A stretch of DNA of 64,000 nucleotides from an uncultured cyanobacterium (GTDB lineage Bacteria; Cyanobacteriota; Cyanobacteriia; Cyanobacteriales; CAWCAG01): assembly GCA_963803805.1 (NCBI GenBank), contig CAWDOD010000010.1:32001-96000 (forward strand), in the 5' to 3' direction. This document shows, in pieces, positions 47,358-57,626 of this stretch. Position numbers and translations under genes: made by a program. The notes under the pieces were generated by a model. The model did not search any database, had not been told where the DNA came from, and saw only the letters and a program-made list of their open reading frames with translations. The first letter of the stretch is position 1, and each line of letters starts with the position of its first letter.

Positions 47358-48812
<1,455 letters not shown>

Positions 48813-48882
48813 TTATCAATTGATAATTGACAATTGTCAAAAAATTCGGGTTTAAGAGGCAGATGTCGCCGAGTTATTAAAA

Positions 48883-48953
48883 GCCGCGCAAGTTAAGAAA
48901 GCTTGTTTTCTGGGAAAGAGAAAGTATGTATGCTCTCTAGATTAGGGCGCAGC
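48883..48953 (-). ncRNA. Y-RNA-like unit E: conserved stem only, no tRNA body
   Basis: 5' GCUGCGC-CCUAAUCU-AGAGAGC-AUACAUAC ... AAGCUUUCU-UAACUU-GCGCGGC 3'. Confidence 0.7.
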
Positions 48954-49076
48954 AACAGCTACCGTTGTCAAGTCAATCATTCATTGGTGTTCCGCAAAGT
49001 AGGTTGCAGGGAAGCCTTTTTGTAACTCAAAAGGCAAAAGAATAATAACTACTCCCCACTCCCCACTTCCTCCTTC

Positions 49077-49463
49077 TTACTTCAAAACAACTGTTGCACC
49101 AACTGCTTCTAACTGAATTTTGGTTGCTTCAGCTATTTGAAGATCCACTGACTGATTAATAGTTGTAGGAATAGAATCAACCATCTGTTTTGATTCTCGC
49201 AAGCTTGTCCCTATTAGGCTTCGTAATGCTTTAATGATGGCAATCTTATTTTCAGTAGGGACTTGCTCTAAAACTACATCAAATTCCATTGGCTTTTCAG
49301 AATGCTCCCCGGTTAGGTTAATTGGATCAAGGCTATAGGCAAAGGTGACTTGAGAAAACATATCTACATTGAAAACTGCTTCAATTTGCTTCACCAATGC
49401 CTGTGTTTCTTGAGAAGTTAGAGTTTGCAGTTGTTCAAGTATTTGTGAAGTTACTGTAGACAT
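49077..49463 (-). CDS. ribosomal protein L7/L12 paralog (orphan, outside rplJ-rplL)
   Basis: ILEQLQTLT..E...LVKQIEAVFNV N-domain; FDVVLEQVP..NKIAIIKALR...SLRESKQMVD...LEAVGATVVLK C-domain; GGAGG RBS. Confidence 0.85.
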   Translation of the reverse strand: MSTVTSQILEQLQTLTSQETQALVKQIEAVFNVDMFSQVTFAYSLDPINLTGEHSEKPMEFDVVLEQVPTENKIAIIKALRSLIGTSLRESKQMVDSIPTTINQSVDLQIAEATKIQLEAVGATVVLK

Positions 49464-49489: not shown

Positions 49490-49646
49490 ATTTCCATACA
49501 AGTTAAGAAAGCTGTGTGTCACAATTTCTATCGCGTTTAACCACTCCGCCACAACTCCAATTGGGGTTGGTGGGAGTCGAACCCACGTATCTTTACAGAT
49601 AACAGATTCCTTAGTGTGTAAGCTTTTTAGATTGGGGTACGGAAAT
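49490..49646 (-). ncRNA. Y-RNA-like unit D: conserved stem plus permuted class II (Leu/Ser-like) tRNA body
   Basis: UCUGU - variable arm UAUCU-GUAA-AGAUA - T arm GUGGG-UUCGACU-CCCAC - CAACCCC-AAUU-GGAGUUG - D arm GCGGAGUGGUUAAACGC - AUAGA. Confidence 0.8.
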
Positions 49647-49665
49647 ATTTTGGCGTGAAAATTAA

Positions 49666-49810
49666 ACCGCGTAAGTCAGTAAAGCTAGTTCAGATACATT
49701 CCACTGCTCTACTAACTGAGCTACATCCCCTTGACAACGGAGATGGTAGGAGTTGCACCTACGACCGATGGATCAACATAGTATGTAAGCTTTGCAAGTT
49801 GGGACGCGGT
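49666..49810 (-). ncRNA. Y-RNA-like unit C: conserved stem plus tRNA body opened at the anticodon loop
   Basis: UCCAU-CGGUC-GUAGG-UGCAACU-CCUAC-CAUCUCC-loop-GGGGAUG-UA-GCUC-AGUUAGUA-GAGC-A-GUGGA. Confidence 0.82.
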
Positions 49811-49833
49811 AGGAATTTAAGGAAAAAGTGACC

Positions 49834-49950
49834 TCGCGCAAGTTAAAAAAGCTGTTAAGTATACACAGGAATCGCACCTGCAACATCTTGATTATGAGTC
49901 AAGCGCTCTACTATTGAGCTAGTATGTAAGCTTCTTAAATTGGGGCGCGA
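49834..49950 (-). ncRNA. Y-RNA-like unit B: conserved stem plus normal-order tRNA body with CAU anticodon
   Basis: CAUAC-UA-GCUC-AAUAGUA-GAGC-G-CUUGA-CUCAUAA-UCAAG-AUGUU-GCAGG-UGCGAUU-CCUGU-GUAU; short acceptor stem merges into the conserved stem; no CCA. Confidence 0.8.
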
Positions 49951-49987
49951 AGTGCTGAACTTTATAGGAGCAAGAATTTAAAGGTGA

Positions 49988-50194
49988 TCCCGCGTAAGTT
50001 AATCAAGCTGTTAATATACTGACGCTCTACCACTGAGCTATATCCCCCATATTTTACGGAGTTAGGTGGCTAGGGAGAAATTAATTTCTATCTCCCCATT
50101 TCCCTATTTCTAGGGGGGATAACAGGACTCGAACCTGTGACCTTCCGTTCCACAAACGAAAAAGTATGTAAGCTTAATAAGTTAGGACGCGGGA
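49988..50194 (-). ncRNA. Y-RNA-like unit A: conserved stem plus permuted His-like tRNA body (GUG loop kept)
   Basis: UUCGU-UUGUGGA-ACGGA-AGGUC-ACAGG-UUCGAGU-CCUGU-UAUCCCCC-(~60-nt insert)-GGGGGAUA-UA-GCUC-AGUGGUA-GAGC. Confidence 0.82.
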
Positions 50195-50208: not shown

Positions 50209-50457
<249 letters not shown>

Positions 50458-50473: not shown

Positions 50474-50503
50474 ATACTACACAAATGCTACAAGTCTTGT
50501 CAA
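50474..50503 (-). promoter_or_regulatory. sigma70-type promoter of the Ro-like operon
   Basis: Minus strand TTGACA (50503-50498) - 18 nt - TAGTAT (50479-50474). Confidence 0.6.
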
Positions 50504-50583: not shown

Positions 50584-51855
50584 TTGTCTGTTAATCTTTC
50601 CAGTATCCAGTTTCCCGGAGTTCACTGCTGCCGCCCCGTAGCAGTGGACTTATTTGCTGGTGCTGGAGGATTTTCTTTAGGCATTGAACAAGCAGGATTT
50701 GATGTAGTGATCGCAGTGGAAAAAGATCCTGTTCATGGGGCTGTACACCAGTTTAATTTTCCCTACAGTAAGGTATTATGTGCTGATCTAGGGACTCTTT
50801 CTGGCCAGGAGATTGAAAAGAACCTTAACCAAGAAATTGACCTGATCGTAGGCGGCCCGCCTTGTCAAGGGTTTTCAGTTATGGGTAAACGAAATCTTGA
50901 TGATGAGCGCAATAACTTAATTTTTCACTTTTGTCGCTTAGTTAAGGAACTACAACCCCGTTACTTCATTATGGAGAATGTTCCTGGTTTGACTCAAAAA
51001 AAGTATGCGGCAATTTTAATGAGGCTTAAAGAAGAGTTTAAATTAGCAGGTTATCAACTTACCGAACCCCTACAAATCCTCAACGCCGCAGCCTATGGAG
51101 TTCCTCAACAACGCCAGCGATTATTTTTATTAGGGACAAGAAAAGGGGAAAAGATTTTAACTTATCCCGATTTAGAACTAACTCCCTACCCAGTTACCGT
51201 AAGAGAGGCGATCGCAGATTTGCCAAACCTAGATGATTTTTGGGAATTGCAAAAGAGTGATGAAGTGGATTTATCACCAGAACGATTAGAACTTTGGGAA
51301 AATACAGCTAGCGATTATATCAAAACCTTACGAGGTTTAATTGATGATCCCCACAATTTTGCTTACCAACGTATCTGGAACCGAACCCAATTAACAAGTT
51401 CCAGGCAAACCCAACATACTACAACTTCTATCAATCGCTTTTGCCAAACGCTCCCAGGAAAAAGGGAAAGAATCAGTCATCTACAAAGATTAGTTTGGGA
51501 TAAACCCTGTCATACTTTACGGGCAGGAACAGGGGGAGAACGAGGTAGTTACACTTCTGCCCGTCCCCTCCATCCCCAATACCATCGGGTAATCTCGGTA
51601 CGAGAAGCCGCCCGGTTACATTCTTTTCCGGACTGGTTCCGTCTTCACACCACAAAATGGCATGGTTTCCGCCAAGTGGGAAATGCCGTTCCCCCTTTAC
51701 TAGGAAGAGTTTTGGGAAATCAAGTTACAGAGGCTTTGGGGATTAAAGCAGAAGTACCTCAACAAATTCTTGAATTAGGAGATGTGGCATTACTCCATTT
51801 AACTCATTCTCAAGCCGATCACTTTTTGAGGAGAGGGGAAGGGGGAAGGAAATAA
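50584..51855 (+). CDS. dcm: DNA (cytosine-5) methyltransferase, orphan
   Basis: DLFAGAGG, GGPPCQGFS, MENVPG, QRQR, QVGNAVPP; no restriction endonuclease adjacent. Confidence 0.92.
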   Translation: MSVNLSSIQFPGVHCCRPVAVDLFAGAGGFSLGIEQAGFDVVIAVEKDPVHGAVHQFNFPYSKVLCADLGTLSGQEIEKNLNQEIDLIVGGPPCQGFSVMGKRNLDDERNNLIFHFCRLVKELQPRYFIMENVPGLTQKKYAAILMRLKEEFKLAGYQLTEPLQILNAAAYGVPQQRQRLFLLGTRKGEKILTYPDLELTPYPVTVREAIADLPNLDDFWELQKSDEVDLSPERLELWENTASDYIKTLRGLIDDPHNFAYQRIWNRTQLTSSRQTQHTTTSINRFCQTLPGKRERISHLQRLVWDKPCHTLRAGTGGERGSYTSARPLHPQYHRVISVREAARLHSFPDWFRLHTTKWHGFRQVGNAVPPLLGRVLGNQVTEALGIKAEVPQQILELGDVALLHLTHSQADHFLRRGEGGRK

Positions 51856-53718: not shown

Positions 53719-56700
53719 ATGATACAAATTCCTCAATCAACCATACTCTATCAAGTAGGAGGAAGCCTGCCTGTTGATGCTCCTACTTATGTGAAAAGGA
53801 AAGCTGATACAGAACTTTATGATGCTTTGAAAGCAGGGGAATTTTGTTATGTTTTGAACTCTCGCCAGAAGGGTAAATCTAGCTTGCGTGTGCAAACAAT
53901 GCAACGCCTAGAAGCAGAAGGAGTTGCTTGTGCGGCTATTGATTTGACTCGTATTGGTAGCCAAAATATTACCCCAGAACAATGGTATTTAGGAATTGTT
54001 AAAAACCTAGCCACCGCTTTAAACCTTTCTTTGGCCAAGCGCCCTAAGTTGGGACATTGGTGGCGAGATCGCTCTGATTTTTCTCCTTTACAACGCTTTA
54101 GCAATTTCTTAGAAGAAGTTCTTTTAGTCGAAGTTAAGCAAAAGGTAGTGATTTTTATTGATGAAATTGATAGTACCATCAGCCTTAACTTTTCTGCCGA
54201 TGATTTCTTTGCTTTGATCCGTGCTTGTTATAACCAAAGGGTTGATAACCCGGAATATAAACGCTTAACTTTTACCCTTTTAGGAGTTGCTACCCCCGCA
54301 GATTTAATTACTGATAAAAGTCGCACTCCTTTTAATATTGGTCGGGCTATAGAATTAGATGGTTTTGCTATGCCAGAAGCTATGACTTTGGCAAGAGGCT
54401 TGACAGCATATACAACCAATCCCCAATTGGTAATGAAAGAAATTTTGGCTTGGACGGGGGGGCAGCCTTTTTTAAGTCAGAAACTTTGTCAGTTAGTTTT
54501 TGAATCCAATGAATTTATTCCTGAAAACCAGGAAGCAGAATGGATTGAGGCTTTGGTTAAAAATCGCGTTATTAACCATTGGGAGGCACAGGATGAACCG
54601 GAACACTTGCAAACCATTCGCGACCGAATCCTCAAGCAAGAAGGGGGGGCCGCGCGGATGTTGGGGCTGTATCAGCAGATCCTCCAAAAAGGAGAAATCC
54701 TTTCTGAGGATAGTTCCGAACAGATGAATTTACGCCTATCTGGTTTAGTAGTGGAAAAGGGGGGAAAGTTACAAGTCAATAACCCCATTTATAAATACGT
54801 TTTTAATCAAAGTTGGGTAGATAAAGAATTAGCTACCTTGCGTCCCTATAGTGAGACTTTGAATTCTTGGTTTACTTCTGGTTGTCAGGATGAGTCTAGG
54901 TTATTGCGGGGCAAGGCTTTACAGGATGCCCTCACTTGGGCAGGGGGCAAAAGTCTTAGTAACCAAGATTATGAATTTTTGGGGGCTAGCCAACAATTAG
55001 CTAAGCAGCAAGTTCAAACTGATTTAGAAGCACAAATTGCGGCTAATCGTATTTTAGCTGGGGCAGAGAAGAAGGCGAAACAGAGAATACGCAGGGGTTT
55101 GATGGTTTTGGGGATTATTTCTGTTGCCTCTGTTTCTATAGTGATTTGGGGCAAAACTGCAATTATAAAAGGACAAACAGCCCTGAAACTAGAACAAAAA
55201 GGGATCAATGCCCTCCAGGAATTTGAAAACGAAGAGTTAGAAGCTTTGCGATCAGCGATCAAAGCAGGGGAAGAATTAGAAGAATTAGTGGGAGAAGAAA
55301 CTCCCTTGGAAGAATATCCGGCGATCGCACCAGTGTGGGTATTACAAAGAATTTTGGCAGAAATTCATGAACGCAACCAATTGTTAGGTCATCAAAGTTT
55401 TGTTTACGATGTAGATTACAGTAGGGGCGAGGGGCCTCTCGCCCCTGACAACAGCAAAATTGCTACCATCTCTGCTGATGGTACAGTTAGAGTTTGGCAT
55501 TCATCAGGGCGGGGGTTAAGTCAGTTTTCGATTAAGGTAGATGAAGCAGAGAACATGACTATGAATCTCAGTTTTAGTCCTGATGGTAAGAAATTGGTTA
55601 CTGCTTCAGAAAATGGTACAGCAAGATTATGGGATTTGTTTGGACAAGAATTGGCTAAATTTGTGGGACATCAAGGGCAAGTTTGGAATGTTAGTTTTAG
55701 CCCTGATGGTAAGAAGGTTGCTACTGCTAGCAAGGATGGTACGGCGCGTTTATGGGATTTATCTGGGCGAGAAATCACTAAATTTGTTGGCCATACCAAT
55801 GATGTTTGGTGCGTTGAATTTAGCCCTGATGGTAATTATTTAGCCACCGCCGGGGAAGATGGTACAGCACGGTTATGGGATTTATCTGGGCGAGAAATCA
55901 CTAAATTTGTCGGTCATGAGGAACAAATTTTTAGTCTCAGTTTTAGTCCTGATGGTCAAACTATCGCCACTACAGGGCTGGATGGTACGGTGCGGTTGTG
56001 GAATTTGTCGGGGCAACAGCTAGCCCTATGGCAGGGTAGCAGAGACTGGCTTTTTGCTATTGAATTTAGCCCCGATGGTAAATATTTAGCGGCAGCAGGG
56101 GCTGATAGTAAAGTTCGTATTTGGGATACTTCTGGACAACTTTTAGGGGAATTATGGGGCCATACTAACTGGATTTATGGCTTAAGTTTTAGTCCTGATG
56201 GCAAAAACTTAGTTACAGCAGGGCAAGATGGTACAGCCCGAATTTGGGATCTTAACAACACTTTTTTCCCTTCTGCTTACCAAGAAAAAGCTGAGTGGCA
56301 AGGAGGAGAAAATGAGTTGTGGACAGTAAGTTTTAACCCGGTAGTGGCGAGGGGCAGATCGCCCTTACTGGCATCAGCAGGAGAAGGAAATACTGCCAAG
56401 ATTTGGAACCTTTCGGGGGAAATGCTAGCAGAGTTAAAAGGCCATCCTAGTTGGATTTATAGCTCAAGTTTCACCCCCAATGGTCAAGGGATCGCCACAG
56501 GGGGAAAAGATGGGACGGTACGCCTTTGGGACTTATCAGGAAAGCAATTAGCTAAGTTTAGGATCGGCCGCTATAAAATCTATAATGTTGGCTTTAGTCC
56601 TGATGGTAAGTATTTAGCGGCGGCAGGGGAAGCTAGTACCGTTTACCTCTGGAATCTTGCTACTAAGGCGCAGATTAAACTTGAAGCCCATGAAGGGATA

Positions 56701-57267
56701 GTTAATTGGGTCAGTTTTAGCCCCGATGGAAAAACTATAGCTACAGCAGGACAAGATGGTACGGTACACCTTTGGAGTTTGTCAGGAGAGGAGTTGCGGC
56801 GATTTGGGGATGGTAAGAATGAAATTTCTAGTGTTAGTTTTAGTCCCAATGGCAAACGCTTGGTTACAACAACAGTAGACAATAAGGTGAAGTTGTGGAA
56901 ATCTTCTGGACAAAAAATAAATGAATTTAATACCCACCAAGGTGGAGTTTTAAGTGCTAATTTTAGTCCGGATGGGCAATTAGTTGCGATCGCAGGGCAA
57001 GATGGTACGGTACAACTGAGATTGGTTTCTGGGATTATTGGACAACAAATTGCTGAATTTAAAGGCCATGTTGGCAGAGTTTACAGCACTAGTTTTAGTC
57101 CGGATGGTAAGTATTTAGCTACAGTGGGGAAAGATGGTATGGTTCGCTTGTGGCGTGTAGAAAATTTAGATGAAATGCTGAAGCGTGGTTGCCAGTGGTT
57201 GAAAGATTACCAAGCTAACCATTCTAATCAAGAAGAGATTTGCTTACCGCAAGGAAGTAATAAGTAA
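53719..57267 (+). CDS. AAA_35 NTPase + TM + WD40-repeat protein
   Basis: [33 protein letters not shown]; about 14 WD40 repeats (FSPDG...DGTARLWDL). Confidence 0.92.
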
Positions 57268-57530: not shown

Positions 57531-57626
57531 GTTGCAACTTCTAATAATCCCTATTAGGGATTGAAACGCCAAACTGCGATCGCATCCCTTTGAGGGACAG
57601 CAGGTTGCAACTTTTAATAATCTCTA
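57531..57626 (+). CRISPR. orphan CRISPR mini-array: one 37-bp repeat, one 36-bp spacer, one truncated repeat
   Basis: GTTGCAACTTCTAATAATCCCTATTAGGGATTGAAAC (internal AATCCCTA/TAGGGATT hairpin, ATTGAAAC end); spacer 57568-57603; partial repeat GTTGCAACTTTTAATAATCTCTA at 57604. Confidence 0.8.

Follow-up and report, generated by a model that had tools for sequence, protein, structure and literature searches.

A conserved array of tRNA-like RNAs beside a Ro60-fold gene

The DNA analysed here is a 64,000-nucleotide (nt) stretch (hereafter the window) of contig CAWDOD010000010.1 from an uncultured cyanobacterium (assembly GCA_963803805.1). Its minus strand carries four tandem RNA units, A to D, which occupy 49492–50194, share one conserved terminal structure (the handle) and bear different tRNA-like bodies. 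Coordinates are positions in the window, and all parts of the array are read on the minus strand. The units are quite probably Y-RNA-type partner RNAs of a divergent Ro60-like protein encoded in the same locus, an arrangement suggestive of a cyanobacterial Ro60/Y-RNA particle; any specific downstream function would be assigned with far less confidence. We favour this reading because the units combine a terminal stem bearing a 5′ motif with a variable effector module, have a Ro60-fold neighbour and occur several to a locus, as Y RNAs do in the parts of the published descriptions available to us. The adjacent gene encodes a protein of 480 amino acids (aa) with the Ro60 fold over its whole length, and the linkage of a small gene (orf66), the array and the Ro60-like gene recurs in relatives and in phage LR756511.1. 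The handle motif is found nowhere else in the genome, its middle helix covaries (also in the phage units), and the bodies are tRNA-like, with covariation in support of all arms in each of the four body classes. An earlier note, made from the sequence alone, had placed the four units correctly to within 1–2 nt. It covered these four, and linked in neither a fifth handle unit (unit E) nor the Ro60-fold gene.

The shared handle

The handle comprises two helices flanking a conserved internal loop (5′ CCYAAY, 3′ RACUU): a basal helix formed by the ends of the unit and an 8-bp middle helix around AAGCU. In units A to D, the 5′ end of about 31 nt reads (basal strand)-YCCYAAY-N5-RAGCWUAC-AYAC, and the 3′ end of about 26 nt reads AGCUU-N4-RACUU-R-(basal strand). 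The basal helix is CCGCG/CGCGG in units A to C and CCGUAC/GUAUGG in unit D, a compensatory change. The strict 5′ and 3′ motifs gave five and four matches, respectively, in the 5.3-Mb genome, every one at the array locus. With the spacing of the handle pattern off by one base, three matches were found in the window against 0.02 expected.

We parsed 93 units from 22 loci of relatives. The loose handle parser returned 13 false matches in the 5.3-Mb genome, so about 0.2 false units are expected in the 70 kb of parsed loci. The basal helix and some of the motif positions were built into it, and the middle helix was left free. The middle helix (5′ columns 16–23 with 3′ columns 11–4) was 83–98% paired at its four variable positions among the 93 units, and the top mutual-information pairs fell on it. 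Among the 31 B-type units described below it was 96% paired, one pair being GC in 13 units and AU in 10. It is the sole unbiased test in that set, because its units had been selected by ARAGORN for their tRNA arms and by the parser for their basal helix. The single-sequence folding suggested by the earlier note spoke neither for nor against the proposed structures: minimum free energy z-scores ranged from −0.87 (150 nt of unit D) and −1.13 (a 150-nt part of unit A) to −2.06 (unit B) and −3.05 (unit C), and the folds were weak, with some cloverleaf arms not reproduced.

tRNA-like bodies in three connectivities

The central claim of the earlier note, a common handle with tRNA-derived bodies attached at three distinct positions, held up, and the modularity proved wider, since relatives also bear 23S-matching, cargo-less and other units.

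In unit B, as the note had described, the handle continues the acceptor stem and the D, anticodon and T arms stand in normal order. ARAGORN calls a tRNA-Met(cat) at 49857–49928. The Rfam tRNA model matches with 50.7 bits at 49861–49925 and covers model positions 4–67 only, because the acceptor stem is the handle itself. For the B type, we aligned 31 units with MAFFT and supplied the structure ourselves. Paired cells amounted to 94.8%, compared with 29–53% when the 3′ partners were slid, and 21 of the 36 pairs changed on both sides; none of 500 shuffles came as high. The B-type acceptor has only four constant pairs, AUAC/GUAU, after which the strands run into the handle; the positions beyond pair in 18 and 22 of the 31 units and are unpaired in unit B of the window. 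Judged as a genuine tRNA, unit B thus has a cloverleaf that tRNA finders recognise and does not have the 7-bp acceptor with free ends (for RNase P, CCA and aminoacylation).

Units C and D are without an anticodon loop; in unit C, the handle stands where that loop would be. The Rfam alignment of unit C, RNAalifold and re-linearised joins agree with the earlier description of both as permuted bodies with a closed acceptor, the wiring of canonical YrlA so far as its published description was available to us. Unit C aligns end to end with the Rfam YrlA model (32.1 bits, E 8e-5), and unit D gives 15.3 bits (E 5.7). RNAalifold, on its own predicted structures, recovers the handle, T arm, closed acceptor and D arm in both types, with 19 of 32 pairs compensatory in nine C-type units and 14 of 33 in four D-type sequences. 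The class II long variable arm ascribed to unit D corresponds to an extra hairpin, and the D arm of the unit is likewise of class II type. The D-arm half of this unit is closest to tRNA-Ser and tRNA-Leu of the genome (23/28), consistent with class II ancestry.

In the T loops of units B and C (UGCGAUU and UGCAACU), G replaces U at the second position, and their D loops have UAGUA instead of UGGUA. One C-type unit of another genus shows the same pair of changes, as read from the alignments, and these paired changes may represent covariation of the G18-U55 elbow contact. A further Rfam "tRNA" at 49562–49730 on the minus strand (38.9 bits) was rejected as an artefact, because its two halves come from different units, the acceptor/D-arm part from unit C and the T-arm/acceptor part from unit D.

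Unit A is also permuted and keeps a complete anticodon-type hairpin, as previously noted. It has two partial Rfam tRNA matches, one over the anticodon arm, variable loop and T arm (18.8 bits) and one over the acceptor 5′ strand and D arm (17.2 bits). An alignment of 15 A-type units (12 genomes) showed 100% pairing in each of four elements, namely the anticodon hairpin, the T arm, the closed acceptor and the D arm. Pairs changed on both sides number 4 of 5 in the hairpin and 6 of 7 in the closed acceptor, and 0 of 500 shuffles reached the observed values. The anticodon-type loop has 7 nt in all 12 units examined; it always starts with a pyrimidine followed by U and has a purine as its sixth nucleotide in 11 units, which is the pattern Y32-U33-NNN-R37. 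ARAGORN, run on circles with introns allowed, also fits unit A to a class II body in which the hairpin would be the variable arm. We favour the anticodon-arm reading, because a variable loop of 4–5 nt (AGGUC in the window) and then the T stem follow the hairpin, and because of the loop pattern of the A-type units. No described precedent for the wiring of unit A was found among the papers searched.

The 65-nt acceptor loop of unit A holds hairpins of its own. Its counterpart in a same-genus relative has only 9 nt, so the window has acquired a strain-specific insertion at a tolerated site. In two other A-type units (L012:789-958 and L026:1926-2093), about 22 nt have been inserted into the T loop, and a normal tRNA elbow should be disrupted as a result.

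The permuted bodies were cut in the acceptor loop, re-joined in silico with 256 trimmings each and submitted to ARAGORN. As anticipated in the earlier note, they scored as tRNA-like: 193 of the 256 joins were called as tRNA for unit A, and 146 each for units C and D, compared with 0 of 5120 shuffled controls for each unit. The commonest call for unit A was His(gtg) (52 joins), with the retained hairpin used as the anticodon arm.

Among the 93 units, ARAGORN made 37 normal-order calls, one of them a parser artefact, which span 20 different anticodon calls (most often Met(cat), 7 units, and Leu(tag), 6 units). Another 24 were called only as circles with the handle as an "intron" and are hence permuted. 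The remaining 32 gave no call: five are cargo-less, eight have a body of 127–138 nt and 19 have other bodies. The 127–138-nt cargo holds 19–33 nt that are 87–100% identical, by BLAST, to the 23S rRNA of the same genome. The matching stretch lies at about positions 1843–1875 of the 2835-nt 23S gene, which we take to be the helix 69–71 region of domain IV. An Rfam scan of eight relatives' loci returned tRNA and sub-threshold YrlA matches and two weak others only, with no large subunit rRNA match for this cargo. The window's own array has no 23S-matching unit.

The three wirings recur across many genera. They are old, conserved paralogous classes with covariation, and not recent captures. The earlier proposal that the handle has repeatedly captured cargo is thus not supported for this genome; nor are the window's bodies close copies of the resident tRNAs (the best non-self match of unit B is 46/61).

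The Ro60-like protein and its leader

The AlphaFold2 (AF2) model of the 480-aa protein has a pLDDT (predicted local distance difference test) score of 93.2 and shows a helical-repeat ring and, after it, a vWA domain whose metal ion-dependent adhesion site (MIDAS; DxSxS, T, D) is complete. In a Foldseek search, ranks 1–10 and 12 were all Ro60/TROVE chains matched over the full length (TMq 0.65–0.69, E 1e-11 to 5e-9). A profile of the 55-member family searched against PDB found human Ro60 (6.6e-18), Xenopus Ro60 (2.7e-14) and Thermus phage phiLo Ro60 (5.8e-14, residues 24–394). Within the family, the MIDAS residues D303, S305, S307 and D389 are invariant and T365 is nearly so. By sequence, the protein itself gave a marginal vWA match in Pfam and no match in NCBIfam or PDB, and PF25045 (Ro60 vWA domain) matched 13 of the 55 members.

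The family comprises 947 clusters at 50% identity and occurs in 33 of 301 sampled genomes of the phylum. No Pfam TROVE match was obtained anywhere in the window's genome (97% complete). A Pfam-TROVE gene is present in 14 of 61 relatives, of which at least three (G006, G039 and G047) also carry the array locus, indicating that the two Ro60 families co-exist. The canonical TROVE Ro60 genes of these three genomes are open frames of 535–561 aa located away from the array locus. Text searches of the literature returned no description of this cyanobacterial family; the cyanobacterial YrlA candidates of PMC4201824 (Supplemental Table S1, Fig. S1) might include some of its RNAs.

The Ro60-like gene starts 81 nt downstream of unit E, a fifth handle with a 16-nt loop as its sole cargo, and such a handle-only unit stands in the leader of the Ro60-like gene in at least eight loci including the window. 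The flanks of unit E can lengthen the handle, with 11 of 12 pairs counted by eye. Within the leader (48790–48975, minus strand), an upstream GGUAGCUGUUGC can pair with a downstream GGCGACAUCUGCC, and an overlapping CUGCCUC can instead pair with the ribosome-binding site; the segment CUGCCUCC can pair with the ribosome-binding site GGAGGUAG. RNAalifold on seven leaders predicted the handle and an 8-bp CUGCCUCC/GGAGGUAG helix, with little covariation. These pairings suggest that the leader may be a protein-operated translational switch for autoregulation.

Conserved linkage and neighbouring genes

Linkage was counted in 20 relatives' loci fetched with wider flanks. The module opens with orf66, which lies directly upstream of the array in 19 of these loci (67–94% identity), and the Ro60-like gene follows the array in 18. 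In 17, both genes flank one to seven handle units on one strand. The number and order of the units vary among relatives, while the flanking genes are constant. The orf66 product has no Pfam or NCBIfam match. Its AF2 model (pLDDT 90.7) is beta-grasp-like, with weak fold matches (Foldseek E ≥ 0.26; VIA Z ≤ 5.2, to MoaD, PB1 and ubiquitin-like chains), and the protein ends in ...RPEAVYG. An Atlas search returned unnamed cyanobacterial and phage clusters only.

Inside the module of the window lies a second, divergent copy of the gene for ribosomal protein L7/L12 (Pfam Ribosomal_L12, 68.1 bits; TIGR00855, 88.2 bits). The other rplL, on contig C4, scores better (107.6 versus 69.6 bits for the window copy). 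A paralog stands at the array position in six of the 20 relatives' loci.

The same module is found in a 595-kb uncultured phage, LR756511.1, where an orf66 homolog (31% identity, E 2e-13) precedes the array, there are five handle units and the Ro60-like gene is 46.6% identical. The phage handles have the basal helix GUCC/GGAC, and one middle helix has changed on both strands together. One phage handle carries a normal-order tRNA mimic that scores 69.3 bits with Rfam tRNA. Three ordinary tRNA-like genes lie just upstream of the phage module. A related-locus search with the single Ro60-like protein retrieved no viral contig.

A promoter-like site upstream of orf66 is possibly the single promoter for the whole module, and no terminator-like site was seen after units A to C. 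On the plus strand, the neighbours are a CRISPR-DR5 repeat (53.2 bits) and genes for a C-5 cytosine DNA methylase and for an AAA-like/WD40-repeat protein of 1182 aa. None of the three showed a link to the array.

Table 1 Features of the locus, its relatives and the phage module. Positions are in the window unless a relative's or phage locus is named.
Feature	Position	Strand	Description	Basis
Unit A	49988..50194	-	Handle and permuted tRNA-like body with complete anticodon-type hairpin	Rfam, joins, covariation
Unit A, 5′ handle strand	50164-50194	-
Unit A, anticodon-type hairpin	50144-50160	-	First in 5′ to 3′ order; followed by 5-nt variable loop
Unit A, T arm	50122-50138	-
Unit A, acceptor strands	50114-50121 and 50041-50048 (50041-50121)	-	Closed by 65-nt loop
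Unit A, acceptor loop	50049-50113	-	65 nt
Unit A, D arm	50024-50038	-
Unit A, 3′ handle strand	49988-50020	-
Unit B	49832..49952	-	Handle leading into normal-order tRNA-like cloverleaf	ARAGORN, Rfam tRNA, covariation
Unit B, D arm	49905-49919	-
Unit B, anticodon arm	49887-49903	-	CAU
Unit B, T arm	49865-49881	-
Unit C	49665..49811	-	Handle and YrlA-type permuted body	Rfam YrlA, RNAalifold, re-linearised joins
Unit C, T arm	49746-49762	-
Unit C, closed acceptor hairpin	49724-49745	-
Unit C, D arm	49706-49721	-
Unit D	49492..49644	-	Handle and YrlA-type permuted body, class II type	Rfam, RNAalifold, joins
Unit D, extra (variable-arm) hairpin	49588-49601	-
Unit D, T arm	49570-49586	-
Unit D, closed acceptor	49552-49569	-	7 bp, tetraloop
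Unit D, D arm	49533-49549	-
Unit E	48882..48954	-	Fifth handle, 16-nt loop, in leader of Ro60-like gene	Motif, RNAalifold
Ro60-fold protein gene	47358..48800	-	480 aa, helical ring and vWA domain, complete MIDAS	AF2, Foldseek, profile
orf66	50209..50409	-	Conserved 66-aa gene opening the module	Relatives' loci, AF2
L7/L12 paralog gene	49077..49463	-	Second, divergent copy inside the module	Pfam, TIGR00855
Promoter-like site	50474..50503	-	TTGACA-18-TAGTAT, upstream of orf66	Pattern match
C-5 cytosine DNA methylase gene	50584-51855	+
AAA-like/WD40-repeat protein gene	53719-57267	+	1182 aa
CRISPR-DR5 repeat	57531-57567	+
23S-matching cargo units in relatives	L007:1902-2086, L009:1238-1421, L012:585-771, L015:1123-1309, L018:2494-2677, L020:1195-1379, L025:2302-2496, L026:2113-2297
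Phage LR756511.1 module	280741-292228 (L057); units at L057 2779-2861, 3610-4278		Same module in 595-kb uncultured phage

Proposed particle and alternative explanations

We propose that the handle is a protein-binding module bound by the 480-aa Ro60-fold protein encoded downstream, and that it would be the counterpart of the bulged CGAA stem that known Y RNAs use on the outside of the Ro60 ring. The variable bodies may then be effector modules, that is, non-decoding tRNA mimics joined to the handle via the acceptor end (unit B), the anticodon stem (units C and D) or the hinge between the D and anticodon arms (unit A). We regard them as non-decoding because the B-type units share a weak, handle-derived acceptor and because units C and D are without an anticodon loop. 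As in known Ro60/Y RNA systems, the bodies might gate the ring and tether it to other factors. These would most likely be tRNA- or ribosome-binding proteins, given the anticodon-like loops, the L7/L12 paralog in the locus and the 23S-matching cargo in relatives. Each particle could display a different tRNA face, as the earlier note suggested. The RNAs are probably cut from one operon transcript running from orf66 through the Ro60-like gene, in which unit E probably lets the Ro60-like protein control its own translation.

Several observations weigh against an assignment to Ro60 and Y RNAs. Pfam TROVE (PF05731) misses the 480-aa protein even at E ≤ 10; the protein is thus a distant Ro60 relative, and its RNA-binding surface may differ. 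The Ro60-binding motif of bacterial and phage Y RNAs is GNCGAAN0-1G or CGAA in the 5′ strand, according to the accessible parts of PMC4201824 and PMC12135203. CGAA is absent from all five units, which carry (G/A)YCCYAAY in that place. The YrlA scores of the window, 32.1 bits for unit C and 15.3 bits for unit D, are far under the gathering score of the Rfam family (RF02553, 69 bits). Part of the apparent conservation of the handle was imposed by the parser, and the pair counts of the B type are biased upwards by the preselection of its basal helix (parser) and tRNA arms (ARAGORN). In A-type units, the distal handle helix aligned poorly and was 46% paired, which we tentatively attribute to the alignment of the variable 3′ segment. 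Finally, promoter-like sites are not above chance in the region (five found, 4.6 expected).

The units could alternatively be unusual tRNA genes, some normal and some permuted, with the handle as a removable processing signal, so that working tRNAs result. The permuted units would mature via a circular intermediate, as in the permuted tRNA genes of algae. Maturation of the algal tRNAs uses a bulge-helix-bulge motif and a splicing endonuclease; here, the linked gene has a Ro60 fold and does not encode a splicing enzyme. ARAGORN and Rfam do call unit B a tRNA, re-linearised unit A forms a complete tRNA-His(gtg)-like cloverleaf, and Y32 and U33 are present in all 12 A-type loops, with the purine 37 in 11. 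The M. smegmatis YrlA, moreover, is cut by RNase P and CCA-tailed, as described in the available part of PMC4201824. We nevertheless consider working tRNAs highly unlikely, since units C and D have no anticodon loop at all and the B-type units share the weak handle acceptor with its four constant pairs whatever their anticodon. The "anticodons" also vary freely among related units (20 different calls in 37), the genome has its own tRNA set (46 ARAGORN calls, 20 amino-acid names), and the handle also bears non-tRNA cargo or none.

Another explanation treats the units not as free RNAs and instead as cis-acting elements of the operon mRNA that mimic tRNA or rRNA and regulate or stabilise the flanking genes, namely orf66, the L7/L12 paralog and the Ro60-like gene. 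All parts do lie on one strand with one promoter-like site upstream and no terminator-like site after units A to C, and the leader of the Ro60-like gene has unit E next to a conserved helix over the ribosome-binding site. Regulation by mimics of rRNA or tRNA is common in ribosomal-protein operons. Such elements would be hard to reconcile with as many as seven tandem units with no gene between them, with a unit number and order that vary among relatives while the genes stay, and with the closure of each unit by a separate terminal helix, as in free Y RNAs. The L7/L12 paralog is also missing in 14 of the 20 relatives' loci that have arrays. We therefore regard this explanation as improbable. Equally, the likeness to Ro60 and Y RNAs could be architectural only, with the handle binding another factor (orf66 or the L7/L12 paralog) and the Ro60-fold protein acting on other RNAs. 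The absence of the canonical CGAA motif fits this possibility, as does orf66, which is linked as tightly as the Ro60-like gene (19 of 20 loci) and whose homolog precedes the phage array. Known Ro60 genes, however, characteristically adjoin their own Y RNA genes, at least in the accessible parts of PMC4201824 and PMC12135203, and the handle-only unit recurs in the leader of the Ro60-like gene, so a purely architectural likeness seems very improbable.

On the preferred reading, in which the units are Y-RNA-type partners of the Ro60-like protein, the locus bears on a question that has stood since 2014, namely what the tRNA-like part of bacterial Y RNAs binds (PMC4201824; 10.1101/312249; as put in their available parts). 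It offers a natural experiment, in that one protein-binding stem would present tRNA mimics by the acceptor, by the anticodon stem or by the hinge. The anticodon-like loops, the 23S mimic and the spare L7/L12 point to the ribosome and tRNA-binding factors as targets, and the array supplies defined RNAs for pull-downs and structures. Ro60 relatives are more widespread than domain searches indicate. Pfam TROVE overlooks this large Ro60-like family, so unrecognised partners may exist for "orphan" YrlA-like RNAs elsewhere. As a tentative and rather doubtful extension, a Ro60-family particle might display translation look-alikes as bait or sensor for agents that attack tRNA or ribosomes, such as phage or toxin nucleases, or might steer the ring onto damaged ribosomes. 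If so, the panel would consist of tRNA mimics of all three connectivities, whose anticodon loops vary, together with a copied 23S rRNA segment in relatives, and the spare L7/L12 and the beta-grasp protein would belong to the same locus. The presence of the module in the 595-kb phage would then place it in phage-host conflict.

Comparison with known systems

The comparisons below follow those parts of the cited papers that were available. Among the closest counterparts is YrlA with Rsr/Ro60 (PMC4201824, 10.1101/312249), which likewise consists of small RNAs beside a Ro60-fold gene, several per locus, whose ends form a stem with a conserved 5′-strand motif in an internal loop. The effector of YrlA is a permuted tRNA with a T arm, a closed acceptor-like stem-loop and a D arm and without an anticodon loop, an organisation shared by units C and D; it is not that of unit B, with its normal order and anticodon loop, or of unit A, which retains an anticodon hairpin. 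Further marks of the YrlA family are binding by Ro60 in cells and modification by TruB and DusA. As for YrlA, a Ro60 ortholog is encoded next door, here by a divergent Ro60-fold gene outside Pfam TROVE. The conserved motif is CCYAAY and not GNCGAAN0-1G, at the position where known Y RNAs carry the latter or CGAA. In score, relatives reached 31–39.7 bits with the YrlA model; units A and B gave no YrlA match in the window scan, and a whole-genome scan gave a partial match of 28.7 bits in the region of unit A. Given the Rfam scores and the missing CGAA, we do not file the units as formal YrlA members. The present loci further differ from YrlA in their extra wirings (A and B), arrays of up to seven units, the cargo-less leader unit, the 23S-matching cargo of relatives and the linked orf66 and L7/L12-paralog genes.

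The connectivity of unit B is that of Deinococcus radiodurans Yrn1, in which the T- and D-like arms are opposite to the YrlA orientation and a stem-loop lies between them in the anticodon-arm position (PMC4201824). The available description of Yrn1 (PMC4201824) gives it an "anticodon loop" of 6 nt and neither a variable arm nor a clear D arm. By contrast, the cloverleaf is complete and the loop has 7 nt in unit B and the 30 relatives aligned with it, which score 45.9–56.4 bits with Rfam tRNA where scanned. Algal permuted tRNA genes (PMC3978253) likewise place the 3′ half ahead of the 5′ half, with a loop between the acceptor ends. Those genes mature into working tRNAs, unlike the reading proposed for the window units; in units C and D there is no anticodon loop, and the flanks are a conserved handle of a probable protein-binding type.

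The RNAs of Thermus phage phiLo differ from the window units in carrying a CGAA bulge, and no tRNA-like domain is described for them in the accessible part of PMC12135203. In phiLo, as in the window, a divergent Ro60 gene has Y-like RNA genes, Yrl1 and Yrl2, adjacent upstream (PMC12135203), and the phiLo Ro60 (9kop, 9l5y) is among the closest solved structures to the protein encoded in the window.

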